NCBI GenBank assembly: GCA_964484465.1
Contig: CAZAFL010000016.1
Coordinates: forward strand, 4,072-68,071
DNA: 64,000 bases
DNA from: an uncultured Chlorobiaceae bacterium
Lineage (GTDB): Bacteria > Bacteroidota > Ignavibacteria > UBA10030 > SZUA-254
Direction of reading: 5' to 3'
This document shows, piece by piece, positions 7,121 through 49,496 of this stretch (positions are counted from its first letter, which is position 1; every line of letters begins with the position of its first letter). The notes beneath the pieces were generated by a model. The model was not told where the DNA came from, searched no databases, and worked only from the letters and a program-made list of their open reading frames with translations. Position numbers and translations under genes: made by a program.

Positions 7121-7708
7121 TCAGTTGTTATTCGATAACTGACGGTAATCTTCGGGCGTATCAACATTTATCATAATCCCACCGTCCTGCACTTCAACTT
7201 CAGCGATTTCGTTCTCGTGCGAGCGGACTACAAATCGTGCGCCTACTTCCGGTGGAGCATTGAGCAAGTCATCAAATAGTCTTGAGGAGAACATTACGGG
7301 ATGACCTCTTTTTTTTTCAAATGTGGGAATAACAATCGGGTTGTTCCCTTCATTGAATTTCATTATTAACGTTTTGATTGTCACCGGCAATACGCCCGGA
7401 TGGTCAACGGGGTGTATAAGTACTCCTTCGGGAAGAGTTGACTGCATCGCCTCAATCCCTGTGATAATGGAAGAAAGCTGTCCATGTTCAAAATTTTTAT
7501 TGATGATGATATCGACATTGACATGTTCGAGGTGTTTTCCAACTTCTACGGAATGTGCGCCGGTGACAACAATAATCTTATCGAGGCCTGCACGCCGGTG
7601 CGTATTAATTATGTGACGGACAAACGTCGTATCACGTATTTTTAGCAGCGCTTTGGGCGATCCCATCCTTCCCGAAGCGCCTGCCGCAAGGATAATAGAA
7701 GTTATCAT
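7121..7708 (-). CDS. mocA: Molybdenum cofactor cytidylyltransferase (MocA/MobA-like NTP transferase)
   Basis: 'IILAAGASGRMGSPKALL' nucleotidyltransferase P-loop. About 195 aa. Lies inside the molybdenum hydroxylase cluster (ygfJ position in E. coli). Confidence 0.75.
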   Translation of the reverse strand: MITSIILAAGASGRMGSPKALLKIRDTTFVRHIINTHRRAGLDKIIVVTGAHSVEVGKHLEHVNVDIIINKNFEHGQLSSIITGIEAMQSTLPEGVLIHPVDHPGVLPVTIKTLIMKFNEGNNPIVIPTFEKKRGHPVMFSSRLFDDLLNAPPEVGARFVVRSHENEIAEVEVQDGGIMINVDTPEDYRQLSNNN

Positions 7709-7800: not shown

Positions 7801-8727
7801 TCAGTGTTCAAGAACCCATGATAACAATGCCATCCGGATGTAAATGCCGTTCTGCGTCTGGCGGAAATACGCAGCGCGGGGGTCGGTGTCGACTTCCGCA
7901 GCGATCTCGCCCGACCGCGGTAAGGGATGCATAACAATGGCATGCTGCGGGAGGTGGCGCATCGCACTCTCATCGAAATAATATTGCCGGATGGTTTGTG
8001 AATACTCAACGTCGCTCCCCTGAAATCGTTCCCGTTCGATACGGGTGACATAGACGACATCGATTTCAGGAAGAAATTTCTTCAGGTCGGATTCGCAGGT
8101 ATACCAGACATCGTGATCGTCCAGGTAATCGATCATATCTTCATTCATTTGAAGCGAAGGAGGGGCGACAAAATATATTTTTACCCGTTCGAATTTTCCG
8201 AGAAGGTACGAAAGGGAGCGAACCGTCCTGCCGTCGACAAGATTCCCCACCATGGCGATCTTCAAACCGTCGAGCTTATTGACACCCTTGTAAATCGTAT
8301 ACAGGTCGAGCAATGCCTGCGTCGGGTGTTGTCCCCCCTTTCCATCACCTGCATTGATGACAGGAGAGGAAGATACCGACGCCGCTCTCTTGGCTCCGCC
8401 GACTTCCATGTGCCTCAGCACAATAACGTCGGCATAATCATCGACGACGCGGATGGTATCTTCAAGCGTCTCACCAAGCGAAGCGGAAGAAAAATCCGCC
8501 GCATGTTCGGTTGACAGCACTTTTCCTCCCAGCCGGTGCATTGCCGATTCAAACGAAAATCTCGTCCTCGTCGAAGGTTCATAAAACAACGACGCCATAA
8601 TTTTGTTATCATAATCCTGCGTCCCGCCGCGCCGTACAATACGCTCCATTTCAGCAGCGCGGTCGAACAGTTCCATAATCATCGGAAGGGTAAACTGCTG
8701 GGATTCGAGTATGTGAGAAAGCTTCAT
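7801..8727 (-). CDS. Aspartate-carbamoyltransferase-like carbamoyltransferase (ATCase catalytic-chain family)
   Basis: STRTR carbamoyl-phosphate motif, HPTQ and HPLPR (the ATCase-type motif rather than OTCase HCLP). 308 aa. No pyrI is adjacent. Confidence 0.7.
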   Translation of the reverse strand: MKLSHILESQQFTLPMIMELFDRAAEMERIVRRGGTQDYDNKIMASLFYEPSTRTRFSFESAMHRLGGKVLSTEHAADFSSASLGETLEDTIRVVDDYADVIVLRHMEVGGAKRAASVSSSPVINAGDGKGGQHPTQALLDLYTIYKGVNKLDGLKIAMVGNLVDGRTVRSLSYLLGKFERVKIYFVAPPSLQMNEDMIDYLDDHDVWYTCESDLKKFLPEIDVVYVTRIERERFQGSDVEYSQTIRQYYFDESAMRHLPQHAIVMHPLPRSGEIAAEVDTDPRAAYFRQTQNGIYIRMALLSWVLEH

Positions 8728-8742
8728 TTCTGTACTCCGGAA

Positions 8743-9681
8743 TTAACGAACAATGTGAGTTCCTCCTGCCCCACATACAGCATCTACAAGATGTTCGGGA
8801 TTTGTGATAATCACTTCTTCACCGCCATGAGAGAGAAAATCTACCGATGCTTCTATTTTCGGACCCATACTTCCCGCCGGAAATTGCCCTTCCTGCAAAT
8901 AGCGAAGAGCTTCACTCACCTTCATACGATCCAAAGAAGTTTGATTCTGTTTTTTGTAGTTCATATAGACACGGTCAGTGTCGGTGGAGATGACAAATTT
9001 TTGCATGTGAAGAGCTTTTGCAAGCAGCGCCGATGCCCGGTCTTTATCGATTACCGCTTCGATACCGCGGTAATGACCATTTTCCTGTATAACGGGAATG
9101 CCTCCCCCGCCGACGGCAATGACAATCATTCCATGATGAAGACATTTATCTATTGCATCCAGTTCAACAATTTCATGCGGTACGGGCGATGGAACAACGC
9201 GACGGTATCCCCGCGCGGCGTCTTCGACGATTTGCCATCCCTGGTCCTGTTTCCGGCGTTCTGCTGTCTCTTTGGAATAGAAGGGGCCAACGGGTTTCGT
9301 GGGGTTTGCAAAGGCAGGGTCGTTTTTATCAACAACGACCTGAGTCAGAATGGTAATGACAGGATTTTTTTTTCCTTTTTCACGAAGAGCCGAACGCAAT
9401 GCATTCTGAAGAATGTATCCCATTTCGCCCTGGGTAGATGCATCGCAACTATCCAGTGGAAGCGGATAGACCTGAGCCGACGCCAGTTCCGAACGAATCA
9501 GTTGCGCTCCAACCTGAGGTCCGTTACCGTGTGTAATTACGACCTGAAATCCTCTTGAGATCAATTCGGCAATATATGAGCAGGTCACCGCGGCATTCTG
9601 CATTTGCTCAGCCACCGTTCCGCTTTGCCCTGCGCGGATGAGTGAGTTTCCGCCGATTGCGATGAGGATTGAAGAAATCAT
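8743..9681 (-). CDS. arcC: Carbamate kinase (ArcC/YqeA-like)
   Basis: 'IAIGGNSL' N-terminus, amino-acid-kinase fold motifs ('ITHGNGPQVG'), about 310 aa. Equivalent to yqeA in the E. coli ygf cluster. Confidence 0.85.
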   Translation of the reverse strand: MISSILIAIGGNSLIRAGQSGTVAEQMQNAAVTCSYIAELISRGFQVVITHGNGPQVGAQLIRSELASAQVYPLPLDSCDASTQGEMGYILQNALRSALREKGKKNPVITILTQVVVDKNDPAFANPTKPVGPFYSKETAERRKQDQGWQIVEDAARGYRRVVPSPVPHEIVELDAIDKCLHHGMIVIAVGGGGIPVIQENGHYRGIEAVIDKDRASALLAKALHMQKFVISTDTDRVYMNYKKQNQTSLDRMKVSEALRYLQEGQFPAGSMGPKIEASVDFLSHGGEEVIITNPEHLVDAVCGAGGTHIVR

Positions 9682-10820
9682 GAGTGAAGAGTTTCTACGT
9701 GAAGGTCAGCTATGAGATCACTCATCACATCCGATTTATTCCGAAGAGGCATGCGTTCCCCCCGTCGCACACGGATAAGCTGTGCGACGATACTGATACC
9801 AATTTCTTCCGGAGTGACAGCTCCGATTTCGATGCCCATCGGAGCATGTACACGCAGTAACGCATTGGGAGACACACCACGCTCTGCCAGATGTTTATAC
9901 GTCGTTAAAATTTTTCGCTTACTGCCAATCATACCGATATACCTGGCAGGAGTCTTGAGGGCATACTCAAGAATTTCTTCATCATATTTATGCCCTCGTG
10001 TAACAATAACAATATATGTCGATTGCTTGATATCCAATATGCCAAACGCATCGGTAAAATCAACCGCAAGCGTTTGTACGGCTTCGGGAAACCGCTGGGG
10101 GTTAGCGTATTTTTCACGGTCGTCAACAATGCTCACCTGAAACCCGGCAAGGGCAGCTGCACGGGAGACAAATTTCGAGACATGCCCTCCACCAAAAATG
10201 ATCAAACCCGGGCTACCGGAAATCGGTTCAAGCAATAATTCACCTCGGGCAATTTTTACACGCTGAGTTTCATGACGATGATAAACTTTTTGAAGAGCAT
10301 CCAGTACATCCGGCGTCGGATGTGAGGCAAGAGATTGAAGTCCTTGAATATCGATGATGAACGCAGCATCAGAACCTGATTCTTTCTTATCGGGAGACCG
10401 GACGAGAAATTTTCCTCTGACCTGCCCGTTAGTATTGAGAAGCGTCGCTAGTATCGAATCTTCTCCCTCTGATCGCCTCGATGTTAACTCCTTGAACAGT
10501 GGAACCATTTCGCCCGTCAACGGTTCAATGAGCACATCCAGACTCCCACCGCACATCAAGCCATGCTCGATGTCGTCTTCATTGAGATGAAACGTAAGGA
10601 TCTCCGCCCTGTTCAGCTCATGGAGACGACGCGCATGCAAGAGCACATCTCCTTCCATGCAACCGCCCCCAACTGTACCTAATGAAACAATCCCGTCATG
10701 TTTAATGAGCATCTTAGACAACGCGGAAGCAGGTGTCGAGCCCGTCGTTGAGATGATTGTCGCGAGCATAACACGTTCTTCTGTTTCGAGGGCGAGGAGT
10801 ATTTCCCTGAAGATCTCCAT
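9678..10820 (-). CDS. XdhC/CoxI-family molybdenum-hydroxylase maturation factor (yqeB-like position)
   Basis: XdhC_CoxI N-terminal domain ('LATIISTTGSTPASALSKMLI...GTVGGGCMEG') plus an XdhC_C Rossmann segment ('LIIFGGGHVSKFVSRAAALAGFQVSIVDDR'). ATGA overlap with arcC. Confidence 0.8.
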   Translation of the reverse strand: MEIFREILLALETEERVMLATIISTTGSTPASALSKMLIKHDGIVSLGTVGGGCMEGDVLLHARRLHELNRAEILTFHLNEDDIEHGLMCGGSLDVLIEPLTGEMVPLFKELTSRRSEGEDSILATLLNTNGQVRGKFLVRSPDKKESGSDAAFIIDIQGLQSLASHPTPDVLDALQKVYHRHETQRVKIARGELLLEPISGSPGLIIFGGGHVSKFVSRAAALAGFQVSIVDDREKYANPQRFPEAVQTLAVDFTDAFGILDIKQSTYIVIVTRGHKYDEEILEYALKTPARYIGMIGSKRKILTTYKHLAERGVSPNALLRVHAPMGIEIGAVTPEEIGISIVAQLIRVRRGERMPLRNKSDVMSDLIADLHVETLHS

Positions 10821-10879: not shown

Positions 10880-11878
10880 TTACATCGTTAATGCCATCAC
10901 GGATTTACACGTATGCAACCGATTTTCTGCTTCGGGAAAGACGCGCGACTGTTTTCCATCAATGACCGCATCCACGACTTCGTACCCGCGGTCGGCCGGC
11001 AAGCAGTGCATGTATATTGCATTCTTGTGAGCCAGTTTCATTTTTTCTTCATCACAAATCCAATATCTGTATTTTTTCGATATCTCAAGAGCTTCCTGCG
11101 GGCGATGGAAAAGTGATTCGATTCCCCACGATTTGGGGTAAACGATATCAGCATCCTTAAATGCGTCATCCATATTATCCACGACATCAAATTTGGTCCC
11201 GTTCTCTTTCGCGGCTTTCTTTGCGTAGTCCATTTCACTTTTCATCAGGGTATATTCCGGAGGATGAGCAAGGACAACATCAAGACCGAACCGAGGCATC
11301 AATGTAATGAGCCCCTGCGGAACCGACATCGGTTTTGCGTAACTCGGCGCATATGCCCAGGAAACTGCAATTTTTAATCCCCGAAGATTTTTCCCAAATT
11401 CTTCCCGAATCGTCATCAAATCGGCGAGCGTTTGAAACGGATGGTCAATGTCACACTGCATATTTAATACCGGGACATTTGCGTGTTCCGCAACTTCGCG
11501 CATATACTTGTTGCCTTCCCCCGGGACAAGGTCATGGCGGATTGCAATCGCATGGCCGTAACTTGAGAGAATAATACCCATATCTTTCGGCGATTCACCG
11601 TGGGCAACCTGTGAAGTTTCCGCCGCGATGAAGTGAGCATGCGCGCCAAGCTGTGTCGCGCCTGCCTCGAACGAATTCCGTGTTCGTGTTGATTTGTCAA
11701 AGAAAAAAAGAAATACCGTCTTGTCGGGCAAATACCTGTGCGCGGACCCTTTCTTGAATAACTTCTTCAAATCGCCCGCAGTTTTGAGTGCCAAGTCGAT
11801 TTCTTTCACCGACCAGTTTTTCGTTTCGATGTAGTCTTTTCCCCGAACGACATTCGGGAGCTTCTGCAATTTCGCCAT
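10880..11878 (-). CDS. YgeW-like (knotted) carbamoyltransferase of the ornithine/putrescine carbamoyltransferase superfamily
   Basis: STRTR motif, 'HCLPA' C-terminal motif, 332 aa. Sits beside carbamate kinase as ygeW does beside yqeA in E. coli. Confidence 0.75.
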   Translation of the reverse strand: MAKLQKLPNVVRGKDYIETKNWSVKEIDLALKTAGDLKKLFKKGSAHRYLPDKTVFLFFFDKSTRTRNSFEAGATQLGAHAHFIAAETSQVAHGESPKDMGIILSSYGHAIAIRHDLVPGEGNKYMREVAEHANVPVLNMQCDIDHPFQTLADLMTIREEFGKNLRGLKIAVSWAYAPSYAKPMSVPQGLITLMPRFGLDVVLAHPPEYTLMKSEMDYAKKAAKENGTKFDVVDNMDDAFKDADIVYPKSWGIESLFHRPQEALEISKKYRYWICDEEKMKLAHKNAIYMHCLPADRGYEVVDAVIDGKQSRVFPEAENRLHTCKSVMALTM

Positions 11879-11913: not shown

Positions 11914-12366
11914 TTATGTTCCAATATCTTCATTCCATAGAGTAGGGTGAGCGTCGATAAAATCTTTCATTAATTTAACGCATTCGTCCATATCGAGATT
12001 GACAACTTCAACGCCATGTTCACGCATAAATGCTTCTGCGCCCCTAAACGTCCGGCATTCACCCACAATCACCTTAGGGATGTTAAACTGCACGACAGCG
12101 CCGGCACACAGATAACAAGGCATCAACGTCGAGTAGAGAAGTGTCTCTTTGTAGCTGCCGATTCTTCCGGCGTTTATCAGGCAATCAATCTCCGCGTGCT
12201 TCATTGGGTTTGATTCCTGCACACGACGATTGTATCCACGACCGATAATGGTTCCTTTCCGCACCAGAACGGATCCGATCGGAATTCCTCCCTCTGACAA
12301 CCCCTTGTTTGCTTCCGCAATGGCAGCTTGCATGAACGTGTCCATTCGCTGCGTATCAATGGTCAA
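11914..12366 (-). CDS. CDA-fold zinc deaminase (Fcy1/GuaD-type cytosine/guanine deaminase)
   Basis: 'HAE' and 'PCYLCAGA' zinc ligands. The C-terminus 'FIDAHPTLWNEDIG' closely resembles yeast cytosine deaminase and Bacillus GuaD. Guanine deaminase is most likely given the purine context. Confidence 0.7.
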   Translation of the reverse strand: MTIDTQRMDTFMQAAIAEANKGLSEGGIPIGSVLVRKGTIIGRGYNRRVQESNPMKHAEIDCLINAGRIGSYKETLLYSTLMPCYLCAGAVVQFNIPKVIVGECRTFRGAEAFMREHGVEVVNLDMDECVKLMKDFIDAHPTLWNEDIGT

Positions 12367-12378
12367 GCGGAAATTGCC

Positions 12379-13575
12379 CTATTTGTTGTTGAGATACGTC
12401 TTCGGAAAAGCTGCGTACCACGCGCTTGCTTTCACGAGATGATCGACAGGGATTTGCTCTGTCGCCATGTGCGCGTAGACTTCGTTGCCAGGGCCGAATC
12501 CGATACAGGGAATATTATGCATCCCCATCACCGCGACGCCATTCGTGCTGAAAACCCACCGGCTTAGCTGCGGTCGTTGTCCGAATAATCCTTCATACGT
12601 CTTGACGCCTGTATGAAGGACTGGATGATTTTCAGGCAATAACCATGTGGGGTAATATTTTTTCGTCGGATAGGTTAACCCTTTCCAGCTCGGAACGGCA
12701 TAATCGAGAACAACAACTTCTCCTTCCGCTTTTTTTACGCTGGAAAGTTCTTGAATTTCATGTACTGCCGATTCTAAAGTGTCCGTTGCAGCCAGCCTGC
12801 GGTCGAGATGGATTGTCGATGAATCCGCCACTGCGCAGAGTGAAGGAGATGTCGACCGGATTTCCGCAATCGTCACCGTCCCCTTTCCCAGGAACGGCTC
12901 GCCAGTCAAACGTTCATTCAACCGTTCAATATCTTGAACGATGGGCGCCATTTTGTAGACTGCATTCACACCGCGTTCTGGCGCCGAACCATGGCATGAA
13001 ACTCCTCGTGTTCTCACTTCTATTTCCATTCTACCCCGATGTCCGCGGTATACAGCCAGGTTTGTCGGCTCGGTAATCACGACTACTTCCGGCCTGATCT
13101 TATCTTCGTTTATAATGTATTGCCAGCACAGTCCGTCACAATCTTCTTCCTGGACACTGCCGACAATATACAGTGTGTAGTCATCCTCCAATCCGAGCTC
13201 CTTTATGATTTTGCCGCCGTACACAATCGAAGCAAGAGCGCCTTTCATGTCGCATGCGCCGCGGCCGTAGATGATCCCGTCCTTCTGTGCACCCTTGAAC
13301 GGATCGATCGTCCAGTTTGCAGGGTTGCCGACATCAACAGTGTCGACATGCGCATCCATTGCGATGATATGCTTTCCTGTTCCGATGCGGCCGAGAATAT
13401 TTCCCATGGGGTCAATTTTGACCTCATCAAATTTGCATTTTTCCATTTCATCTTTGATCCGATGAATGACCTGCTCCTCCTGAGAGCTCATCGATTTTAT
13501 TGCGATAATGTCACGAAGGAACTGCGAAACCTGCTTTTCGTTGTTCTGTGCTGTCTTGAGAATCTGATCGAACAT
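12379..13575 (-). CDS. M20-family metallopeptidase/amidohydrolase (YgeY-like)
   Basis: 'DAHVDTVDVG', 'GRGACDMKG' (M20 active-site Asp and general-base region). 398 aa. Matches the ygeY position in E. coli. Confidence 0.75.
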   Translation of the reverse strand: MFDQILKTAQNNEKQVSQFLRDIIAIKSMSSQEEQVIHRIKDEMEKCKFDEVKIDPMGNILGRIGTGKHIIAMDAHVDTVDVGNPANWTIDPFKGAQKDGIIYGRGACDMKGALASIVYGGKIIKELGLEDDYTLYIVGSVQEEDCDGLCWQYIINEDKIRPEVVVITEPTNLAVYRGHRGRMEIEVRTRGVSCHGSAPERGVNAVYKMAPIVQDIERLNERLTGEPFLGKGTVTIAEIRSTSPSLCAVADSSTIHLDRRLAATDTLESAVHEIQELSSVKKAEGEVVVLDYAVPSWKGLTYPTKKYYPTWLLPENHPVLHTGVKTYEGLFGQRPQLSRWVFSTNGVAVMGMHNIPCIGFGPGNEVYAHMATEQIPVDHLVKASAWYAAFPKTYLNNK

Positions 13576-13611: not shown

Positions 13612-14169
13612 TTATACAACTTCCGTCAATAGCTCTCCTCTTGGCTGAGGGATGACGACTTTATTGACAAGTAATCCCTTGTCTGCTACTATTGCCGCAC
13701 CGGCATCGACGGCAGATTGGACTGCCGCAACTTCGCCGGTTAACGTAAGAAATGCTTTTCCGCCGAGCGCCATAGCAAGCCGGATTTCAATTAGCTGCAC
13801 ACGCGCCGCTTTAACAGCGGCATCTGCAGCTTCGATCAATGAAGCGACAGAAAACGATTCCACAATTCCCAGGGCTTCCAGAAGGTCGACTTTACTGGTT
13901 CCTCCGATCGCAGGGAACACAGCAGAGTGTACATTCGGGATAACAAACGTGTCAATTACTGACCCTCTCGCAGCAATGCTTCCCGCTTCAACGCTCGAGG
14001 TTACAGCGGCGACTTCCCCTGCAACGAGCACCATATACTTGCCTGAACAGATTGTTCTTGAAAGAATAATTTCCACTTCGGCTGCCTTCAACATCGCATC
14101 CGCAGCCTGGAAACCCGCGGCAATACTGGTCAGCTCGATAAGACCAATTGAATTTCGTTCCATAGTCAC
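13612..14169 (-). CDS. PduT-like tandem BMC-domain (BMC-T) shell-protein homolog with a conserved Fe-S cysteine
   Basis: Two BMC-fold repeats, 'SIGLIELTSIAAGFQAADAMLKAAEVEII' and 'ALGIVESFSVASLIEAADAAVKAARVQLIEI'. 'SRTICSGKYMV' corresponds to the PduT [4Fe-4S] Cys region (TICPGK). 185 aa, versus 184 aa for PduT. Confidence 0.75.
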   Translation of the reverse strand: MTMERNSIGLIELTSIAAGFQAADAMLKAAEVEIILSRTICSGKYMVLVAGEVAAVTSSVEAGSIAARGSVIDTFVIPNVHSAVFPAIGGTSKVDLLEALGIVESFSVASLIEAADAAVKAARVQLIEIRLAMALGGKAFLTLTGEVAAVQSAVDAGAAIVADKGLLVNKVVIPQPRGELLTEVV

Positions 14170-14201
14170 TCCATGAGTAGAAGTACTGGTTAATATTTCG
14201 A

Positions 14202-15524
14202 CTACGTTCTTTCGATGTCTATTGCTTGCCCGATGCCCCTCACGATACCGTCAATACTCGCGTGAATTCTGGCCCCGAGTTTTCCCTCGGGAACTTCGCC
14301 AATGCACTGCCCTTTACGAACAGTGTCGCCGACACTGACCGTGGGTTGGGCAGGGGAGCCGATGTGTTGCGATAACGATATGCTCACACGAGAAGGTGAA
14401 GGTTTCTTATCGCTGAATTCGGAATGATGGTCATATTCCGTTACTCCGAGTCGCTTGACCAGTTGTTTCAGTGGTGTCCGCCTTCCTTCATACATCGCAT
14501 GGGGTTCCACTTCCATTTTGCCCGACCATTTAATGCCCTGCTCCTTCAAGTCACGTTTCCCCTTATCGCAGGCTTCCTTTGGAAAAAGACTTTCGGGGCA
14601 CGCGTACAGCGTACAGAGCCCGCAGGCGCAGCAGAGCTGTGCATACTGGTTCCAAACGTTCTCACCAGTTGAAGTAAACCCGAGGCTCCTCATGACTTTA
14701 TGCGGCTGGACATCGTAACCGAGAAGGTAGCGAGGGCATAATTCGGTGCAATACGTACATTGATCACACGCCGATTTTCCGATCCTGTGCATTGCCTTTT
14801 CCGGCTGTTGCTTTCGTTGAATAAGGGCGTGATCTGCGGGAAGTACCACGAACCCTGCTGTTGTTTTCGTAATCGGAAGGTCGAGATTAAATTCGAGTTT
14901 GCCCATCATGATTCCACCGACGAAGAGAGCGAACTCTCTTGCCGTAGAACCCCCGGCGAAGGCAATTGCATCCTTATAACTCATTCCAATCTGGGCGATA
15001 AACGAAACAGGATGTTTCACTGCGCCCGCGACAGTGACAAATTTTTCTGTCACGGGTTCGCCTTCGGCGGCACGGGAAATATTATAGAGTGTTTCGACAT
15101 TGTTGACAACAACACCGACATCGAGTGGAATGCCCTGCGGCGGCATCAATCGTTTTGTCGCTTCATAGACGAGAATGTACTCGTCACCGGAAGGATAAAA
15201 ATCACCCAGCAAATGCAATTTGATATTATTGAAATTATTGGTATGAAGTATCTTCGAAATGGTTTCGATTGCATTCGTATTCTTCGCCTTGATACCGATA
15301 ATTCCGGATTTCGCTCCGGTAGATTCCATCAGGAACTTCAAGCCTTCAACAACTCTCTCCGGGTGGTGAACCATCAGCTCAAGGTCTTTATGGATCAACG
15401 GCTCACATTCCGCCCCGTTGGCGATGACGGTATCAACCCTGGACGAGGCCTTTACATGGGCGGGGAATCCTGCCCCGCCCGCTCCGACAACACCTGCTTC
15501 CAGTATTTTGTCCTGGAGTGCCAA
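14202..15524 (-). CDS. PduS/RnfC-like Fe-S flavoprotein: N-terminal NADH/FMN (Complex1_51K-like) domain, SLBB domain, 2x[4Fe-4S], and a C-terminal RnfC_N-type barrel domain
   Basis: 'GAGGAGFPAHVK' (RnfC/NqrA/51K motif), 'CDQCTYCTELCP' and 'CCACGLCTLYACP' ferredoxin motifs. The C-terminal 'LSQHIGSPAQPTVSVGDTVRKGQCIG...ARIHASIDGIV' resembles the RnfC N-terminal domain, here circularly permuted as I recall for PduS. It lies directly upstream of the PduT-like gene, the same order as pduS-pduT. Confidence 0.7.
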   Translation of the reverse strand: MALQDKILEAGVVGAGGAGFPAHVKASSRVDTVIANGAECEPLIHKDLELMVHHPERVVEGLKFLMESTGAKSGIIGIKAKNTNAIETISKILHTNNFNNIKLHLLGDFYPSGDEYILVYEATKRLMPPQGIPLDVGVVVNNVETLYNISRAAEGEPVTEKFVTVAGAVKHPVSFIAQIGMSYKDAIAFAGGSTAREFALFVGGIMMGKLEFNLDLPITKTTAGFVVLPADHALIQRKQQPEKAMHRIGKSACDQCTYCTELCPRYLLGYDVQPHKVMRSLGFTSTGENVWNQYAQLCCACGLCTLYACPESLFPKEACDKGKRDLKEQGIKWSGKMEVEPHAMYEGRRTPLKQLVKRLGVTEYDHHSEFSDKKPSPSRVSISLSQHIGSPAQPTVSVGDTVRKGQCIGEVPEGKLGARIHASIDGIVRGIGQAIDIERT

Positions 15525-15548
15525 AGTTTTACCGACAGGTCATCTTGT

Positions 15549-17030
15549 TCAGTTTTGAATTTTGGAATTGAAATCGTCGATCAGTTCGTCAAACTCTTTC
15601 ACTTCACCCTCGAACATCTGCTTCCAAAATTCCGAATCCCACTGGGCATTAAGTTCTTCTGAAGTTTTTCCCTGTTGTTCAACCCAAGTAAAATACTTGA
15701 GATGATGAATTGATTTCCTCTCATAATATGTCAACTCTTTGAAATAATCGATACTCTGATGAGCGAGTGGTCCGGCATGGTCTTTTGCAGCCTCAGTAGG
15801 AGAATACTTCCCTCGTTCAGAATGAAGTTCCAGTAATCGTGAACGGTAGAGGTCCGCCGAATCGGTAAAAATAGTAAAAATGACATCCCGCTCATTCATC
15901 TCGAAATATTTTGCAGTTTTGATTGCAGCAAGAAGATTGCAGATGCTCGATATGCCAAGTACTGAAAGTGTATCTTTCATCGCGTTTTTTACTCCGATGC
16001 TCTTCAAATATGATGTCCCCTCTGCCTCGTTGAAAAGACGCAGTACCCGCATGCAATCTTCATCATCGATGGCGGCAACAGCATCGGTATTAAGAACATT
16101 ATGAACCCACGGCACGTGTTTATCACCGATTCCCTCGATGCGGTGCGCACCGAACCCATTTATCAGTAATGACGGACATTGAAGAGCTTCCGTAGCAACT
16201 ACTTTGAGATGAGGAAATTTGTTTTTGAGATAATCTCCTGCGGCAATCGTGCCGGCTGACCCTGTAGCAGAGATGTACGCGGAAGCATTGAGATTTTTCC
16301 CGAGGGAGCGATACACTTCTTCAATCGCAGGTCCGGTAACATTATAATGCCAAATCGGGTTGCCGAACTCTTCAAATTGATTGAAGATAACATTGCGGGG
16401 ATTTTTTTTCAGCTCCCAGCATTTATCGTAAATCTCCTTGACATTTGATTCTGTGCCCGGAGTTGCAATAACTTCAGCACCAATTTCTTTTAACCAGGTG
16501 AATCGCTCCTTCGACATTCCCTCGGGGAGGATAGCCACTGCTGTGCAGTCCAATAGAGCGCAGTCGAATGCGCCGCCGCGACAGAAATTTCCCGTCGAGG
16601 GCCACACGGCTCTATGTTTTTCAGGGTCAAATTCACCGCTCACCAGCCGCGGCACAAGGCAGCCAAAGGCAGCACCGACTTTATGTGCGCCCGTAGGAAA
16701 ATACTTTCCTACTAGACCGATAATTCTGGCATTTACTCCTGTTATTTCTTTCGGAATTTCAAGATAGTTCACTTTCCCGAATGATCCATCATCAGGATTA
16801 TTTTTCCACGTAATACGAAAGAGGTTCAATGGATTTATATCCCACAATCCGACCTTTGTCAGTTTCTTCTTGATGGATGATGGAATTGTCTCGGGATTTC
16901 TCATTTGAGAAAAGGTAGGGATAACGATACCGTGCTTCGCACAGCGCTGAGCAGTCTTTTTTATAACAGCCGGAGAAAGTTTTCGGACAATTTTGGACAT
17001 GCAATGCTTCAGATTAATTTTATGACACAT
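15549..17030 (-). CDS. PLP-dependent fold-type-II (CysK/TrpB-like) enzyme, 493 aa, with a C-terminal extension
   Basis: 'PTGAHKVGAAF' Schiff-base lysine context, 'ISATGSAGTIAAG' Gly-rich PLP-phosphate loop. No close match to ygeX. Confidence 0.55.
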   Translation of the reverse strand: MCHKINLKHCMSKIVRKLSPAVIKKTAQRCAKHGIVIPTFSQMRNPETIPSSIKKKLTKVGLWDINPLNLFRITWKNNPDDGSFGKVNYLEIPKEITGVNARIIGLVGKYFPTGAHKVGAAFGCLVPRLVSGEFDPEKHRAVWPSTGNFCRGGAFDCALLDCTAVAILPEGMSKERFTWLKEIGAEVIATPGTESNVKEIYDKCWELKKNPRNVIFNQFEEFGNPIWHYNVTGPAIEEVYRSLGKNLNASAYISATGSAGTIAAGDYLKNKFPHLKVVATEALQCPSLLINGFGAHRIEGIGDKHVPWVHNVLNTDAVAAIDDEDCMRVLRLFNEAEGTSYLKSIGVKNAMKDTLSVLGISSICNLLAAIKTAKYFEMNERDVIFTIFTDSADLYRSRLLELHSERGKYSPTEAAKDHAGPLAHQSIDYFKELTYYERKSIHHLKYFTWVEQQGKTSEELNAQWDSEFWKQMFEGEVKEFDELIDDFNSKIQN

Positions 17031-17102: not shown

Positions 17103-19727
17103 CTATTTGCCAAGTATAGCTTTTGCGGCAGGTGAATCCTTCATCGGCAACGAGTAGCGACGGACACCGTCGTACTTATACAAGGCAGCCGCCACAGCGC
17201 CAGCAGTCGGAACAAGGCCGATTTCGCCAACACCCTTTGCTCCGAACGGCCCTTCCGACTCATGTTCTTCGATGAGGATAATTTCAGTCTCCGGCATGTC
17301 TTTTGCCCGAAGAAGTCCCAACGACCGCAACTTGAACGATTCCGGGACACCATCGACTAAATTCAAATCTTCAGTGAGCGCATACCCGAGCCCCATGTGG
17401 ACAGAACCTTCCAGCTGACCTTCGAGGAGTTTCTTGTTGATAACTCTGCCGACGTCGTGAGCAGCAACAAATTTCTTCAAGCGGCCGCTTTCATCCAGAA
17501 TACAAACCTGCGTTGCGAACCCGAATGTCATGTGTGTTACGGGTTTGTTCGTTTTGGCATCGAGTGCCGTTGTATAATCGATAACGACTTCACCGAGATA
17601 TTTTTTCCCCCTGAGATCATTGAGTGTTTTACCCGCATCTAAATCCTTCTTCATCTGCTCCGCTGCTTTTATTACCGCCCGACCGCCGAGGACAGTCGCC
17701 CTCGACGCGGTCGTCATCCCGCAGGGGGTAGGTTGTGTGGTATCGATGTCGACTCGAACTTTTCTCGGGTCGATTCCCGTGACATCGCTGAAAAACTGGA
17801 TCATCACAGTGCAAAATCCCTGGCCCATTTCGGTAAAACCGGTATTAATCGTGATTGTTTCATCCTCATGAATCGTGACAATTGCCTGACCGTACTCCGG
17901 CATTCCGTTTCCGATGCCCACGTTTTTAATTCCACATGCAACGCCGGCAAATTTCGATGAATAATACAGGTCTTTGACTGCCAACAACGTTTTCCTGATA
18001 CCAACCGCCCGTTCAAATACCTGTCCGGTACAAAACGTGTCACCTACATCCACAACGTTTCTCCACCGCATCTCCCAGCCGTCGATGCCGACTTTCTCGG
18101 CGAGGATATCCATCATGCCTTCGATAGCAAATGCTGCCTGGTTAGCACCGAACCCACGCATTGCTCCACACGGCAGGTTATTTGTATATACCGCAAGTGC
18201 TTCAACATCTGAATTCACAATATTATACGGTCCGCACGCATGCCCCGCAGCACGCTCAAGTACCTTTGTCCCCACCGAAGCGTATGCTCCTTTATCTCCG
18301 ATCATTCGAGCTCGGACGGCGGTCAGCCTGCCATCTTTATCACACCCAACAGTGTACACCATCTTAATTGGATGACGCTTCGGATGGAGGCGAATACTTT
18401 CATCTCTGATGAGCGTGGCTTTCACAGGCTGTTTCGTCAAAGTGGCCATGAGTGCGACTTGCGCTTGAATGCTCAAGTCTTCTTTGCCACCGAAAGCTCC
18501 TCCATTGGAAATCAATGTTACCTTCACCTTCTCTTCCGGCAAGCCCAGAAATGACGCAATTTGTTTTCTGTCGTCGAACACTCCCTGTCCCTGGCTCAAC
18601 ACCTCGACAGTCCCATTATTGCGGAATGCGATTGCGCTTTCAGGTTCAAGGTACGCGTGTTCGATCATCTGTGTGGAAAATGTACGCGTTTCGACAAACG
18701 CGGATTCTTTCAAGGCTTTATCGACATCCCCTCGTTTTATGAGAGACCGTGAGAGGAGGTTCTCGTGATGTCCGTGGACCTGAGGAGCTGAAGGCTTTAG
18801 CGCTTCCTCGGGGTCAAAGACTCCCGGAAGGTCTTCAAATGTGAGTTTAATGAGTTGCACTGCTTTTCGAGCAACACGAACATTTTCTGCAACAACGCCG
18901 GCAAGAATATCACCGATACAATGCGTGACTTCTCCCTCGGCAATAAACAGCGGCCAGTCTTTATAGATGAGACCCTGATTTCGTTCGCCGGGAACATCCC
19001 TGGCAGTAACAATCCGAATAACACCGGGAGTACGCTCCGCCTCAGTTGAATCAATCTTAATAATCTTTATGCGGGGATGAGGTGAAAAAAGGAAGGCAGC
19101 ATGCAGCATGTCCGGCATGGTGATATCGTCGATGTACGGACGCTCACCCATGGCAAATTTTTCACCGTCCATGCGAGGCAAGCTTGAGCCAATTTTTCCC
19201 GAATAATCGGGTTCGGGCAGCGGCGTTCCCTGCAACGCTTTTGCTGCAAGGTCAATAGCATCGACGATTTTTACATAACCGGTACAACGACAGATATTAT
19301 TATTCAACGAACGGGCAATTTCATCACGGGAGGGGGTTGGGTTTTTATCGATAAGGTTTTTTGCGCGTGTGACTATGCCCGGAATGCAAAAACCACATTG
19401 TAAGCCCGCCGAAAGTGTAAACGATTTTGCAAAAATGTTCCGTTCATGTTCGCTTAGTCCTTCAAGAGTTATGACATTTTTGCCGGCAACATTTTTTGCA
19501 GGTACTGCACATGACGAAAGAGCTTTGTCCCCCACTATGACTGTGCAACATCCACATGAACCCTGCGGGGCGCAGCCGTTCTTCGGTGAAATCAACCCTG
19601 CCTGCTCGCGGAGAACATCCATCAACGAAATTTCTGCGTCGATGTCTGCCGAAAACGGCTGACCGTTGAGCGTAAACTCAACCGTTTGCGATTGCAGCGT
19701 AGCCTTTTTGTTCAATACGTCATGCAT
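17103..19727 (-). CDS. XdhD-like fused molybdenum hydroxylase: N-terminal 2x[2Fe-2S] domain joined to an aldehyde-oxidase/xanthine-dehydrogenase Mo-binding domain, with no FAD domain
   Basis: 'CAPQGSCGCCTV' and 'CGFCIPG...CRCTGY' 2Fe-2S motifs, then a/b hammerhead and MoCo-binding segments ('GGAFGGKE', 'GFGANQ', 'EIGLVP'). 874 aa. Equivalent to E. coli xdhD/ygfN. Confidence 0.8.
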   Translation of the reverse strand: MHDVLNKKATLQSQTVEFTLNGQPFSADIDAEISLMDVLREQAGLISPKNGCAPQGSCGCCTVIVGDKALSSCAVPAKNVAGKNVITLEGLSEHERNIFAKSFTLSAGLQCGFCIPGIVTRAKNLIDKNPTPSRDEIARSLNNNICRCTGYVKIVDAIDLAAKALQGTPLPEPDYSGKIGSSLPRMDGEKFAMGERPYIDDITMPDMLHAAFLFSPHPRIKIIKIDSTEAERTPGVIRIVTARDVPGERNQGLIYKDWPLFIAEGEVTHCIGDILAGVVAENVRVARKAVQLIKLTFEDLPGVFDPEEALKPSAPQVHGHHENLLSRSLIKRGDVDKALKESAFVETRTFSTQMIEHAYLEPESAIAFRNNGTVEVLSQGQGVFDDRKQIASFLGLPEEKVKVTLISNGGAFGGKEDLSIQAQVALMATLTKQPVKATLIRDESIRLHPKRHPIKMVYTVGCDKDGRLTAVRARMIGDKGAYASVGTKVLERAAGHACGPYNIVNSDVEALAVYTNNLPCGAMRGFGANQAAFAIEGMMDILAEKVGIDGWEMRWRNVVDVGDTFCTGQVFERAVGIRKTLLAVKDLYYSSKFAGVACGIKNVGIGNGMPEYGQAIVTIHEDETITINTGFTEMGQGFCTVMIQFFSDVTGIDPRKVRVDIDTTQPTPCGMTTASRATVLGGRAVIKAAEQMKKDLDAGKTLNDLRGKKYLGEVVIDYTTALDAKTNKPVTHMTFGFATQVCILDESGRLKKFVAAHDVGRVINKKLLEGQLEGSVHMGLGYALTEDLNLVDGVPESFKLRSLGLLRAKDMPETEIILIEEHESEGPFGAKGVGEIGLVPTAGAVAAALYKYDGVRRYSLPMKDSPAAKAILGK

Positions 19728-19730
19728 TGT

Positions 19731-21689
19731 TCAAAATTCAATTGCGTCGATGTTTACAAAATGAACCCGGTTCGAATTGAGCATCCCTTTCATTAGCGTA
19801 GCCATCGCGTGGTAATACGCCATATCCACCTTCACGCTTGAACCATTGTCCCGTGCTCTTGCCCCGAGAATTCTCGACATATTCCAGTCGATTGTCACCA
19901 CGGCGTCAATCGTTGCAAACGTGGCTGACGTTCTCTGCTCATCGAGCGACAATTCATATTCTTTATCCCTGAAGCGTCCCTGGAGCGCGACATTCTTTTT
20001 ATTTCCCGTAAATACAAAACCGCTCAACGAATTCCATTTTTTAAACATCTCGGTAGAACCAAAAAATCTCGGCTTCTCGATATACGGCCCGCCGTCTTCA
20101 GGACAAAAAACATCACAGTTGCCACATTCATTACATGCATCCGCGAACGTAGCGATTTGGTGAATTTCCCTGATCTTGAATAGTCCGCCTTCAACTTCGC
20201 GCCACGTATTTTCTTTAATTTCGACATTTTTATATTGAATTTCAACAGGTTCAACCTCAAAATAGAAGTTTGCATCATTCGGGCAAACCGGGATGCATTT
20301 GTCACAATTAATGCAATCCCATAAATGTAAATGACTTCCAATTTTTTTCGGGATTTTTTGATTACTTTCGAAATGATAACGATGATGTTCGACAGTTTTC
20401 TTCAATACTTCGGCAGTGTTTTGCATTACTACCGAGTTAACGTCATTGGATGCGGCGCTTGATTTCAGATAGTTATGTTGAAATTCTTTTATTGTCACAG
20501 CGCCAGCCGCTTTCATCTTTTGTTCGAGGTTCACGAGATACTGTGGAAGCCTGCCGTAGCCGCCTGGCCGCAAAAGATCTGTGCAAGTAGTAACCGGAAC
20601 AAGCCCCACCGCTACACAATCCGCAAAGTTGTTTGCATCGACCCCAGCAGAAAATGAAATGGGAAAATCTGCTCCGAACGCTTTTCTCCATTCATCAACG
20701 AGCGCAAGATGCAGAACATGCAAAGGTTGACCGGAAAGATACTGAATTTTATCTTTAAGAAATTTCCCCTTATTAATAACTTCAAGAGTATTGCCAAATT
20801 TTACGCCGACCGTTTTTCCCGCCTTTGCGGCAACAGATTGTAACCTTCGGACAACCCCGACTGCATCCTGGAACATGATGTTCACCTTGTAGATGTTTTC
20901 ATTCACCTCAATGTCCCGGTATCCAAGTTTTTCATGAAGAAGAAATTCGACACGCTCCCTTCCCAGCATCGGAGGATTCATCTTTATAATGACATGAAAA
21001 TCCATTTCGGAGAGAAGAAACTCGCAAATCCTTTCAATCTCGTTTGCCGGCGTGCCGTGGAATGTGGAGAGGGTGATGCTGTTCCCAATTTCCGACTTGA
21101 AATTATTGTTACGATAAGATGAAAACTCTGAAGGGATTTGTTTTCGGTATTCCTCTATCAATCCTGAAGCGTTCTTCATAGCGCTCAGCCACTGACGAAT
21201 TTGCGAACTCTGAATCCCCGCAAGGTCATAACCGACACTTATGTCAAAGATCGTGTCAAGGTTGTTGTGTTCAGCGAACAACCATCCCTTAAGAATTTCG
21301 ATGACCACGCTTGCCTTGACATATTCTTTCAGCGATTCATCGAGAAGAAGTTCCTGCGACCATTCGGTATTGTAGCCGATGGTCGCCATATCGATACATG
21401 GCCTTGTCAGTTTTAACCTGTCGTTAATCTGGACGGTTTTCAGTTCGAGGATTCGAGAACCGGCCAACCAGGAAAGGACGATATTCTGCGTAAGTTGTGT
21501 CTGAGGTCCGGCAGCGGGACCGACTGGATTCGCGGCGGAGTTTCCGCAAAATGTCACCGACATATCCACTACGTTGCTCGGTCGATAAAATTTTCTTGAC
21601 GGAAGGTCGAAAATCGAGTTGTTCTTCTTGTACTCATAATAAATACGCCTGAGAAGATTGGGGAAGGATATTGGAACAAGCTCAGCCAT
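19731..21689 (-). CDS. Dihydropyrimidine-dehydrogenase PreA-like / YgfK-N-terminal-like Fe-S flavoprotein (TIM barrel plus 2x[4Fe-4S])
   Basis: DHOD/DPD-like barrel segment ('SFSAGVDANNFADCVAVGLVPVTTCTDLL') followed by 'CINCDKCIPVCP' and 'CNECGNCDVFCP'. 652 aa. Lacks the GltD-like C-terminal half of YgfK. Confidence 0.5.
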   Translation of the reverse strand: MAELVPISFPNLLRRIYYEYKKNNSIFDLPSRKFYRPSNVVDMSVTFCGNSAANPVGPAAGPQTQLTQNIVLSWLAGSRILELKTVQINDRLKLTRPCIDMATIGYNTEWSQELLLDESLKEYVKASVVIEILKGWLFAEHNNLDTIFDISVGYDLAGIQSSQIRQWLSAMKNASGLIEEYRKQIPSEFSSYRNNNFKSEIGNSITLSTFHGTPANEIERICEFLLSEMDFHVIIKMNPPMLGRERVEFLLHEKLGYRDIEVNENIYKVNIMFQDAVGVVRRLQSVAAKAGKTVGVKFGNTLEVINKGKFLKDKIQYLSGQPLHVLHLALVDEWRKAFGADFPISFSAGVDANNFADCVAVGLVPVTTCTDLLRPGGYGRLPQYLVNLEQKMKAAGAVTIKEFQHNYLKSSAASNDVNSVVMQNTAEVLKKTVEHHRYHFESNQKIPKKIGSHLHLWDCINCDKCIPVCPNDANFYFEVEPVEIQYKNVEIKENTWREVEGGLFKIREIHQIATFADACNECGNCDVFCPEDGGPYIEKPRFFGSTEMFKKWNSLSGFVFTGNKKNVALQGRFRDKEYELSLDEQRTSATFATIDAVVTIDWNMSRILGARARDNGSSVKVDMAYYHAMATLMKGMLNSNRVHFVNIDAIEF

Positions 21690-21779: not shown

Positions 21780-23111
21780 TTACACTTTTCTCATCCTCTC
21801 CCACAACCTCGTTGCCACTTTTCCCGCTTTCTCATTAACCTTTGCCACATCGAGACCAACGACTTCCCTGTTTTTCACTACCCACTTCCCGTGAACCATC
21901 ACCGACTCAACCATGGAGGAATTCATTCCAAACAAAACATGTCCGGAAAGATTTTGTTTTGTGATTGGCGTTGGAGGAGCATAATTCACTACGATAAGGT
22001 CGGCAACAGAATTTTTCGCCAATGTTCCAAATTGTTTCCCAAAAATTTCCGAAACCAGCCGCTGGCCGCCGTTAAGGACTTGTGTGATATCAACGTTTTC
22101 AGAAAACCCTGAATCGCGTCGCTTGAAGTAACCGAATTTCGCCTCTTCAATCATGTCCGCAGGAAATCCATCCGTGCCGAGCGCGGCCCTTTCACCGAAA
22201 AGATGAAGTGGTGCATACCCTACACGGTTGTTCATGTTTGAACGGGGATTATGAACCATCCAGCATTTCCCTTCATACACAGGTATAAAATTCTTTTTCG
22301 AAAGATGGACACAATGCGCGAGAATAGACTGCTTGCGTAATATGCCGTGTTCCCCGAGGCGTTGTGTGACGCTACACTGGTAATTTTCCTCAACGTCAAT
22401 GATATCGCACTTATCTTCAGCAACATGGATATGAACGCCGGTGTTATACTTTGATGCAAGTTGCCCGCAGAGGCGCAATGAATCATTACTCAACGTGAAG
22501 GAGGCATGCACACCAACCAATCCGCGAAAGTGAGAGCTTTTTTTATTCGCGCGGATAAATCGTTCATTTTCTCGCAAACCCCGATCCCGTTCCTTCATTC
22601 CTCCACGGTCGGTCACTTCATAACAGAGCACTCCGCGCAATCCAACTTCGTTTATGGCTTGTTTGATAATATCCAGCGACCCTTTGATGGCTCGAGGAGA
22701 CGAGTGATGGTCGACAAGTGTAGTCGTACCATATGTTACAGCATCAATTGCTCCCATGAGCGCACTGTAATAAATGGCCTCATCATCGAGCGCGCGGTCG
22801 AGTCTCCACCATATCTTCTGAAGAATTTCCAGAAAATTTTGCGGCTGTTCTTCCGGCATCGGCATTCCGCGTGAAAGGCTTGAATACAAATGTGTGTGTG
22901 CGCAGACAAATCCGGGCATTATTAACTTGCCCTTCAAATCATAAACCTCCTCATTGCGTTTTTGAACAAGGTTTTTTTTCCGATCGCCGATCTTGCCGTC
23001 GTCTACACGGATGTCCGCCGATTCAATAGATAGAGGAGAAAGGGTCAGGATTGAAGCGTTCCGCAGTAACAGGCTCAAGAAATTACACTCCCGCGAGCGA
23101 AGGCACGGCAA
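21780..23111 (-). CDS. ssnA: SsnA-like amidohydrolase (chlorohydrolase/aminohydrolase family)
   Basis: 'PGFVCAHTHLYSS' metal-binding HxH, 'HVAED', 'HCVHL', and 'GTDG' aspartate motif. About 440 aa. The ORF-track start is a TTG that overlaps the upstream gene; the true start is probably internal. Confidence 0.7.
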   Translation of the reverse strand: MPCLRSRECNFLSLLLRNASILTLSPLSIESADIRVDDGKIGDRKKNLVQKRNEEVYDLKGKLIMPGFVCAHTHLYSSLSRGMPMPEEQPQNFLEILQKIWWRLDRALDDEAIYYSALMGAIDAVTYGTTTLVDHHSSPRAIKGSLDIIKQAINEVGLRGVLCYEVTDRGGMKERDRGLRENERFIRANKKSSHFRGLVGVHASFTLSNDSLRLCGQLASKYNTGVHIHVAEDKCDIIDVEENYQCSVTQRLGEHGILRKQSILAHCVHLSKKNFIPVYEGKCWMVHNPRSNMNNRVGYAPLHLFGERAALGTDGFPADMIEEAKFGYFKRRDSGFSENVDITQVLNGGQRLVSEIFGKQFGTLAKNSVADLIVVNYAPPTPITKQNLSGHVLFGMNSSMVESVMVHGKWVVKNREVVGLDVAKVNEKAGKVATRLWERMRKV

Positions 23112-46511: not shown

Positions 46512-46551
46512 TCCCTAATTACTTGCTGCAGGCTTGGAATGTAACGATTAT

Positions 46552-49489: not shown

Positions 49490-49496
49490 ATTGAAG

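Follow-up and report, generated by a model that had tools for sequence, protein, structure and literature searches.

The PduS/BMC-T pair

The 64-kb window analyzed here (64,000 nucleotides of contig CAZAFL010000016.1 from an uncultured Chlorobiaceae bacterium, GCA_964484465.1) contains two adjacent minus-strand genes whose products are of kinds known from bacterial microcompartments (BMCs): a PduS-type flavoprotein and a PduT-type BMC-T shell protein. The pair is embedded in a purine operon, and it may form an electron relay that serves the iron-sulfur (Fe-S) enzymes of that pathway. The coordinates of both genes and of their neighbors are collected in Table 1.

The assignment of the BMC-T gene is well supported. 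A first-pass annotation of the window had placed a 185-aa protein at 13612-14169 and pointed to two BMC repeats (ADAMLKAA and AADAAVKAA) and a TICSGK cysteine. All of these motifs are present in the translation, and the open reading frame (ORF) at 13612-14169(-) matches the Pfam family PF00936 in two stretches with an E-value of 2.2e-47. Two BMC domains are therefore carried by a single chain of PduT-like length (~184 aa expected). While the length was rightly called PduT-like, the start had to be corrected from the GTG at 14169 to the ATG at 14163, because the homologues are 183 aa long throughout. A search with TIGR02526 (eut_PduT) covered residues 5-181 at 117.6 bits, which is below the cut-off of 250.

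The only cysteine of the protein, C39 in ICSGKY, does not vary in an alignment of 20 homologues and aligns with the pore cysteine of the PduT-type structures 3NWG, 3PAC, and 3N79 (E 2e-56 to 7e-44). The residues C39-S-G-K-Y also satisfy the published pattern for the PduT pore cysteine, C-[PSA]-G-[KRS]-[YF] (PMC6325248). That alignment also shows no variation at the edge lysines K26 and K118 or in the two C-terminal motifs IPN.H and P.PR, as would be expected of a shell tile that packs into facets.

PduS is defined by the four domains PF01512, PF10531, PF13534, and PF13375 (PMC6325248). Each of them scores above its Pfam gathering score in the window protein, with PF13375, the RnfC_N barrel, at the C-terminus. 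The translation carries GAGGAGFP as well as CDQCTYCTELCP and CCACGLCTLYACP. The best matches in the PDB are RnfC subunits, to which query residues 2-323 align from about residue 126 of RnfC. The earlier description of an RnfC-like flavoprotein in pduS-pduT order, with GAGGAGFP, two 4Fe-4S motifs, and a displaced RnfC_N domain, is thus borne out. Only 38 bp separate pduS from the BMC-T gene, and the two genes adjoin at every one of 80 genome loci whose contig spans both. Among the window ORFs of at least 150 aa there is no match to a Pfam family of B12-dependent enzymes or PduO that could provide a context for corrin reduction, and a role as corrin reductase is implausible for this PduS.

The purine operon

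The pair lies within an operon of 16 genes that runs from 28388 to 7121, all on the minus strand, with intergenic gaps of 12-92 bp or overlaps. Table 1 lists the genes in the order of transcription, from XdhAB to the MocA-like gene. The gene set corresponds to anaerobic purine/urate catabolism of the 2,8-dioxopurine type, a route described in recent work (PMC12507026; bioRxiv 10.1101/2025.04.24.650524), and SsnA, YgeY, and carbamate kinase each score over their NCBIfam cut-offs. The gaps that flank the pair are 24-38 bp long. No terminator-like site was found on the minus strand from XdhD to the deaminase, with the promoter and terminator scans performing at chance level, and co-transcription of the pair with the purine operon is plausible.

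Table 1. Genes of the purine operon in the 64-kb window, in order of transcription (PLP, pyridoxal 5'-phosphate; CDA, cytidine deaminase; XDH, xanthine dehydrogenase; DOPDH, 2,8-dioxopurine dehydrogenase).
Gene or product	Position	Strand	Features and profile matches
XdhA (2Fe-2S + FAD)	26952-28388	(-)	TIGR02963, 567 bits (cut-off 467); Pfam domains
XdhB (Mo)	24354-26705	(-)	TIGR02965, 1007 bits (cut-off 849.5); Pfam domains
Threonine-synthase-like (ThrC-like) PLP enzyme	23083-24339	(-)	PF00291, E 4e-74; NF006050, 289 bits (cut-off 303)
SsnA amidohydrolase	21780-23111	(-)	NF005540, 476 bits (cut-off 444)
UacX-like reductase	19731-21689	(-)	YgfK N-terminal domain and 4Fe-4S dicluster, without NAD(P)H/FAD module
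Fused 2Fe-2S/Mo hydroxylase, selenium-dependent XDH type (DOPDH/XdhD-like)	17103-19727	(-)	TIGR03311, 972 bits (cut-off 830); without FAD domain
PALP-483	15549-17000	(-)	PF00291
PduS-type NADH/FMN flavoprotein	14202-15524	(-)	440 aa; two [4Fe-4S] motifs; RnfC_N barrel C-terminal
PduT-type BMC-T	13612-14163	(-)	183 aa; two BMC domains; pore Cys39 in ICSGKY
YgeY family hydrolase	12379-13575	(-)	NF009555, 593 bits (cut-off 321)
CDA-fold deaminase	11914-12366	(-)	Profile search
YgeW-like carbamoyltransferase	10880-11878	(-)	YgeW model, 256 bits (below cut-off 453)
XdhC-family maturation factor	9678-10820	(-)	Profile search
Carbamate kinase	8743-9681	(-)	Above NCBIfam cut-off
ATCase-like carbamoyltransferase	7801-8727	(-)	TIGR00670, 315 bits (cut-off 237)
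MocA/YgfJ-like cytidylyltransferase	7121-7708	(-)	Profile search

Two molybdenum hydroxylases are encoded, a canonical FAD-containing XdhAB and a fused enzyme of the selenium-dependent type that resembles DOPDH. The first-pass annotation had described the setting of the pair as a hydroxylase without FAD subunit. This is correct for the fused XdhD-like enzyme, which lacks a FAD domain, but not for the cluster as a whole, because the canonical XdhA is encoded in the same operon. The reductase upstream of XdhD matches TIGR03315 over residues 4-408 alone (422 bits against a cut-off of 835). Its Pfam matches are Fer4 families only, with no Pyr_redox module, and it resembles the UacX of Clostridioides difficile as described.

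Two genes of the urate route, hyuA and ygeX, have no counterpart among the Pfam and NCBIfam profile matches in the operon, where neither a second amidohydrolase nor a diaminopropionate (DAP) ammonia-lyase was found. Other PLP enzymes of the operon may stand in for YgeX, and the ThrC-like enzyme is a candidate replacement for this ammonia-lyase. The ThrC-like protein has an N-terminal, cysteine-rich segment like a zinc ribbon, and it is kept in the purine clusters of both the Fibrobacteres-Chlorobi-Bacteroidetes (FCB) group and the Terriglobia. The ATCase-like gene adjoins carbamate kinase in this catabolic operon, and as many as three genes of the OTCase fold occur in a single cluster of the relatives. 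Such genes in purine clusters may thus encode catabolic carbamoyltransferases.

Elsewhere in the window, proteins with cupredoxin domains and sorting signals of the type IX secretion system (T9SS) are encoded beside a sigma-54 response regulator and histidine kinase pair (44397-47199, 52549-53250, and 48077-51314), and a Mrr-type restriction endonuclease is found at 55274-56182. These genes have no relation to the pair but speak for a contig from the FCB group. Neither the Rfam scan nor the tRNA scan gave a match in the window.

Other shell genes

Apart from the BMC-T gene, the window appears to contain no shell genes. Searches with phmmer, in which the window BMC-T, PduA, EutN, PduN, and CcmL were compared with all six-frame ORFs of at least 40 aa, returned only the BMC-T itself. 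Pfam scans of all window ORFs of at least 150 aa gave no further match to PF00936 or PF03319, and the small intergenic ORFs of the window include nothing BMC-like. The agreement of these searches upholds the earlier statement that BMC-H and BMC-P genes are absent from the 64 kb, although the negative result is weaker for BMC-P, for which EutN, PduN, and CcmL served as queries, than for BMC-H. Nor is an aldehyde dehydrogenase encoded near the pair.

Distribution of the family and its link to FRAG1 and ACI microcompartments

Relatives of the window BMC-T number in the thousands. The best 120 are 75-100% identical, about 183 aa long, and come from metagenome-assembled genomes (MAGs) of Bacteroidota, Ignavibacteria, and Terriglobia. 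The subfamily is present in at least 582 species-level genomes of the Ignavibacteria/Bacteroidota and the Acidobacteriota. A scan of one genome per GTDB species provided the 80 best loci (L004-L083), where ORFs were called crudely from stop to stop. These loci belong to Ignavibacteria/Melioribacteraceae, Bacteroidota/Chitinophagaceae, Bryobacterales, Solibacteraceae, and Terriglobia. Compared with the window BMC-T, the copies in Melioribacter roseus MAGs (L034, L074) have 71-73% identity, and the Solibacteraceae and Bryobacterales copies have 72-78%. A recent transfer from a PDU, EUT, or GRM locus can be ruled out, because the family is old and taxon-coherent and the GC content is unremarkable.

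At none of the 80 best loci was a BMC-H or BMC-P ORF found within 10 kb of the pair. One of them has a 61-aa ORF with a BMC domain (L056:11186-11368) that matches the window BMC-T with E 2.7e-10. This ORF is located some 0.6 kb downstream from the intact BMC-T gene, just past a two-gene insertion resembling the HigBA toxin-antitoxin system, and is probably a duplicated BMC-T fragment.

The distance from other shell genes has a precedent. In FRAG microcompartments, which occur in Ignavibacteriae and related phyla, the shell genes are spread among as many as six genomic locations (PMC8217296). The catalogue of Sutter et al. (2021, Nat Commun 12:3809, PMC8217296) treats FRAG1 as a "shell protein only" type for which no cargo is known. 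Satellite pairs of PduS and BMC-T are catalogued for FRAG1 (24 of 57 loci, mostly from Ignavibacteria) and for ACI of the Acidobacteria (PMC8217296, Supplementary Data 2). In the part of the BMC-Ts tree that was examined, the leaves of the PduT-type "wisteria" clade are nearly all FRAG1(sat), including M. roseus MROS_2475 (181 aa), the exceptions there being one EUT2B leaf and one unassigned leaf, "UA (sat) (omitted)". The same part of the tree has a sister clade, "tealBlue", composed of ACI(sat) and including Solibacter usitatus Acid_0708 (183 aa) (PMC8217296).

The window pair is a member of this catalogued FRAG1/ACI satellite family, with the FRAG1/ACI assignment taken over from the literature catalogue. 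It stands apart from shell genes in the manner described for FRAG1 of Ignavibacteria, Bacteroidetes, and related phyla, its nearest relatives are in Bacteroidota and Ignavibacteria MAGs, and the window encodes T9SS sorting domains. The orphan position is the usual state of the family, because the catalogue lists satellites and none of the 80 loci has a further shell ORF nearby.

The genes around the pair differ greatly within the family. In Melioribacteraceae the order ClpC, pterin dehydratase, OPRT, M64 peptidase, SpoIIE-type phosphatase, PduS, BMC-T is conserved, and the neighbors in other lineages are transporters, MutY, MurJ, AdoHcyase, and the like. The loci without purine genes share no metabolic neighbor, and the SpoIIE-type phosphatase is the one recurrent gene. 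This SpoIIE/PP2C-type phosphatase, sometimes with FHA and GAF domains, is near the pair in 33 of the 80 loci, in Ignavibacteria, Blastocatellia, and Bryobacterales. Its gene immediately precedes or follows the pair, or occupies the other strand at a distance of 1-5 kb (for example L034:7429-8676, L047:10614-11750, and L014:10953-12794), and is absent from the window. It may represent a regulatory link for the generic pair.

Conservation and origin of the purine linkage

Purine genes are found at six of the 80 best loci, four of them from Acidobacteriota that are mostly labelled Terriglobia (L012, L016, L023, and L025), together with L041 and L069. When the neighborhoods of relatives were checked for purine genes beside the pair, the pair was found within a purine cluster in every close relative sampled (L001-3, L041, L069, and L084-89). 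The purine clusters of these close relatives nevertheless occur in three architectures. The first, shared by the window, L086-87, and L088-89, combines a FAD-less fused XdhD of 872-875 aa with a UacX-like reductase of 678-680 aa (652 aa in the window) that contains only Fer4 domains. The second (L001-3) has separate Mo, FAD, and 2Fe-2S subunits and a two-subunit reductase that is GltD-like and PreA-like. The third (L084-85) possesses a YgfK-like reductase with Pyr_redox_2. In L041 the pair lies between YgeY and a carbamoyltransferase.

Terriglobia have a different order, in which XdhAB, SsnA, an aminotransferase, a 436-aa protein, a carbamoyltransferase, and carbamate kinase precede PduS and BMC-T, and further carbamoyltransferases, a ThrC-like PLP enzyme, and a UacX-like reductase follow. 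Proteins of 436-441 aa without a Pfam match (L090:4979-6289, L001:13904-15229) are present in the purine clusters of Terriglobia and of L001-type Bacteroidota, and not in the window.

The purine clusters of L084-L088 also contain small insertions, namely PF05635 (23S_rRNA_IVP), DUF4160/DUF2442, PIN, and DUF1016/YhcG genes (for example L084:9574-9930 and L088:7210-9976 and 14802-15373), and in one case a PF05635 gene lies between PduS and BMC-T. Evidently the purine operon tolerates insertions without losing the pair.

The history of the linkage was examined with a neighbor-joining tree of concatenated PduS and BMC-T (71 taxa, 624 columns, uncorrected or log-corrected distances). The two purine-linked groups fall in different, taxon-coherent clades. 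The purine-linked pairs were monophyletic in none of 100 bootstraps, which rules out a single horizontally moved purine-linked cluster, and in all 100 the purine pairs from Terriglobia clustered with Acidobacteria pairs that lack the purine context. Identity averages 64% from one purine group to the other, compared with 71% of each to its own taxonomic neighbors. On this phylogeny, the purine linkage appears to have arisen at least twice, or to be ancient with many losses. Its recurrence and its survival of internal rearrangement therefore argue for a functional connection between the pair and purine degradation in these lineages.

A connection of this kind would be illusory if the pair were a mobile two-gene module of general use that had come to lie among purine genes by chance, and whose work, for instance redox exchange across a FRAG1/ACI shell, is unrelated to purines. 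Such a passenger would account for the unrelated and variable neighbors of the pair at 74 of the 80 loci (ClpC, OPRT, M64 peptidase, transporters, MutY), and other mobile insertions (PF05635, toxin-antitoxin, PIN) do occur inside the purine clusters of relatives. However, it would have to have been captured into the cluster of one pathway in two phylogenetically separate events and then kept through at least three rearranged architectures in the FCB clade of the window. The tight same-strand spacing, with gaps of 24-38 bp, is also not what is expected of a passenger, and this explanation is judged quite unlikely. Were it correct, the locus would be one further catalogued satellite and of little interest.

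A PLP enzyme fixed beside the pair

The interval in which the first-pass annotation placed the pair, 13612-17030, holds a third gene that was not described there. Its product, PALP-483, is a 483-aa PLP enzyme with the CysK/O-acetylserine sulfhydrylase (OASS) fold and helical extensions at both the N- and C-termini. The database protein P0122, also of 483 aa, is 100% identical. The lysine of its TGAHK motif aligns with that of the SVKD motif of cysteine synthase, the PLP-binding residue. An AlphaFold2 (AF2) model has a mean pLDDT of 74.7 and a pTM of 0.82, and its top Foldseek matches are O-acetylserine sulfhydrylases, cystathionine beta-synthase (CBS), and beta-cyanoalanine synthase (E ~2e-15, TM-score 0.7-0.78 by target). 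The last part of the C-terminal extension is a conserved acidic helix of amphipathic character (residues 456-482), which could be a targeting, docking, or encapsulation element, or a dimer contact.

The best 120 relatives of PALP-483 are at least 75% identical, and full-length members are found at identities as low as about 31-45%. The order PALP (480-494 aa), PduS, BMC-T is kept in the window, L001-3, L069, and L084-89, sometimes with a PF05635 gene inserted. Neither of two distant relatives that were sampled is beside PduS, both being on short contigs. A fixed PLP-enzyme partner of the pair in the clade of the window appears to be new.

This arrangement raises the possibility that PALP-483 is the true partner of PduS and BMC-T. 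It would then fill the place of YgeX, which is missing, at the C3 end of the pathway and act on 2,3-diaminopropionate or a ureido derivative, with PduS adding or removing electrons. The order of the three genes is constant whatever the type of reductase, neither YgeX nor HyuA orthologues were detected in the operon, and the fold and TGAHK lysine are those of a PLP enzyme of the CysK/OASS type. Against this stand the separation of the PALP homologue from the pair in L041, the Terriglobia purine clusters, which have the pair without the 483-aa form, and the two distant relatives that are not beside PduS. In addition, no beta-elimination or beta-replacement reaction of a PLP enzyme is known to need an external reductase. 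A three-protein system is judged very improbable.

A possible electron relay to the purine pathway

Based on the current evidence, it is about evenly balanced whether the pair forms a relay, leading from NADH through FMN and two [4Fe-4S] clusters to the [4Fe-4S] cluster of BMC-T, that exchanges electrons with Fe-S enzymes of the purine pathway. In this relay the BMC-T would most probably be a tile of a FRAG1-type shell encoded elsewhere. PduS would take electrons through its NADH/FMN module and pass them along its two [4Fe-4S] motifs. By analogy with PduT structures and biochemistry, the BMC-T trimer would hold one [4Fe-4S] cluster on its axis, and PduS would dock on the trimer and move electrons between the NAD(H) pool and this cluster. 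The pair would feed two reductive steps, those of the DOPDH-like XdhD and of the UacX-like reductase. Both enzymes are without an NAD(P)H module in the window. Should there be a shell, electrons would be exchanged across it.

An electron partner for enzymes of the DOPDH and UacX types is genuinely needed. The fused DOPDH of Clostridium sporogenes does not use NADH or NADPH, and the study that describes it expressly leaves the physiological donor open (bioRxiv 10.1101/2025.04.24.650524). For XdhD and UacX of C. difficile, a ferredoxin-type donor is merely surmised (PMC12507026). BMC-H genes and a BMC-P triplet are expected elsewhere in the genome of the window by analogy with other members of the family, because the family is catalogued as FRAG1/ACI satellites; a FRAG1 genome would have two BMC-H genes besides the triplet.

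Several observations weigh against this relay. Purine genes are not near the pair at 74 of the 80 best loci, and purines are not its general role because most family members are outside a purine context. For a shell in the genome of the window, the catalogue is the sole source. The pair is kept in sister clusters whose hydroxylase or reductase has its own FAD or NAD(P)H module (L001-3, L084-85). A crude amphipathicity scan, the only one made, found no clear encapsulation peptide on the purine enzymes; Sutter et al. likewise report no encapsulation peptides in FRAG genomes (PMC8217296). Finally, the midpoint potential of PduT from the PDU system is high, +99 mV (PMC6325248). If true here, such a value would suit the export of electrons better than their donation to a low-potential urate reductase.

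The first-pass annotation had offered two readings of the locus. The first was that the pair acts outside a compartment as the electron-transfer partner of the FAD-less XdhD-like hydroxylase. It is favored by the open donor of DOPDH, but weakened because the pair persists in sister clusters with their own FAD/NAD(P)H modules and because the window has the FAD-containing XdhAB. Replacement of a FAD subunit as the sole rationale can be ruled out, since the pair does not track FAD-less hydroxylases or reductases across relatives. The second reading, a satellite locus of a purine-linked microcompartment, is better supported in view of the catalogued FRAG1/ACI satellites, although the purine link holds for two subclades only.

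Spelled out, the first reading dispenses with the shell altogether. The BMC-T trimer would serve as a free [4Fe-4S] carrier or docking platform and PduS as an NADH:FeS oxidoreductase for XdhD and the UacX-like reductase. No other shell gene is found in the 64-kb window or within 10 kb of the pair at the 80 loci, the 874-aa XdhD and the 652-aa UacX-like reductase are without NAD(P)H modules, and the donor of DOPDH is open (bioRxiv 10.1101/2025.04.24.650524). In the examined part of the catalogue tree, the leaf "UA (sat) (omitted)" represents a pair without an assigned BMC type, but FRAG1 or ACI shell genes are present in the genomes of nearly all the other leaves of that clade. The invariance of K26, K118, IPN.H, and P.PR is as expected of a facet-packing tile. 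As with FAD replacement, the shell-free module is at odds with the persistence of the pair where reductases have FAD/NAD(P)H modules of their own and with the FAD-containing XdhAB of the window. It is considered unlikely.

The relay toward a shell encoded elsewhere would have consequences beyond this locus. FRAG1/ACI microcompartments would be coupled to anaerobic urate degradation through a PduS/PduT satellite in at least two lineages or, equivalently, PduS and BMC-T would be the donor system of the NAD(P)H-independent DOPDH and of the UacX-type reductase. This is put forward tentatively and is judged unlikely. If true, it would provide the first clue to the function of FRAG1 and suggest a specific candidate for an open step of a newly described pathway. 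The recruitment of a PduS/T satellite into purine operons on two occasions is a testable clue to what some of the cargo-less FRAG1 shells serve. Moreover, the gene of the fused Mo hydroxylase is followed, two genes downstream, by those of a predicted NADH-oxidizing Fe-S flavoprotein and a putative Fe-S BMC-T, which together are a donor candidate for DOPDH that can be tested in vitro.

Comparison with known systems

Among the known systems close to the pair are PduS and PduT of the PDU and GRM microcompartments, for instance in Salmonella and Citrobacter (3N79, 3PAC; PMC6325248). As in those systems, the window encodes a four-domain PduS and a tandem-BMC PduT with the Cys motif in adjacent genes, and a relay from NADH through FMN and Fe-S clusters to an Fe-S cluster in the shell is presumed. 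In contrast, neither a signature enzyme of the B12-dependent or glycyl-radical kind nor PduO, an aldehyde dehydrogenase, or further shell genes are found near the window pair.

The operon itself is closest to the urate clusters of Escherichia coli, C. sporogenes, and C. difficile (bioRxiv 10.1101/2025.04.24.650524; PMC12507026). Shared features are a fused selenium-dependent hydroxylase of the DOPDH type, SsnA, YgeY, carbamate kinase, and maturation genes for the molybdenum cofactor, along with a carbamoyltransferase that is YgeW-like and a reductase that resembles the YgfK/UacX type in its N-terminal part. The FAD-less XdhD with a UacX-like reductase resembles the arrangement of C. difficile, and the pairing of XDH with DOPDH is that of C. 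sporogenes. However, no PduS, BMC, or RnfC-like genes are reported for these clusters, and the window, without detected HyuA or YgeX, has two other PLP enzymes, an ATCase-like gene, and the PduS/T pair. The terms microcompartment, PduS, PduT, and RnfC do not occur in the two papers on the purine pathway (PMC12507026; bioRxiv 10.1101/2025.04.24.650524).

A link between a BMC shell and anaerobic purine degradation has been proposed before, in the BUF1/Xau xanthine microcompartment predicted for Firmicutes (Ravcheev et al., 2019, PMC6620236), and some BUF1 genomes have PduT-type satellites. The two differ in that BUF1 has BMC-H and BMC-P genes in the enzyme locus and follows the classical clostridial formiminoglycine route, whereas the window locus has no further shell gene and encodes a pathway of the YgeY/YgeW/SsnA type.

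The FRAG1/ACI satellites are the nearest match to the pair. They belong to the same protein family (71-78% identity) and share its pduS-pduT order, its distance from shell genes, and its taxa. The word "xanthine" does not occur in the main text of the catalogue (PMC8217296), and the literature search for FRAG1 led to no publications besides the catalogue and its preprint. The earlier statement that neither reading is an established system therefore needs qualification, since satellite PduS/T pairs are published, but it stands for the purine context, which was not found in the literature searched. While the text of the catalogue mentions no purine genes, the pairs of the window and of the Terriglobia subclade are embedded in a purine operon, and in the clade of the window the pair is fixed beside a 483-aa PLP enzyme. 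The embedding of the PduS/T pair among purine genes, with two captures, appears to be a new feature of this satellite family.

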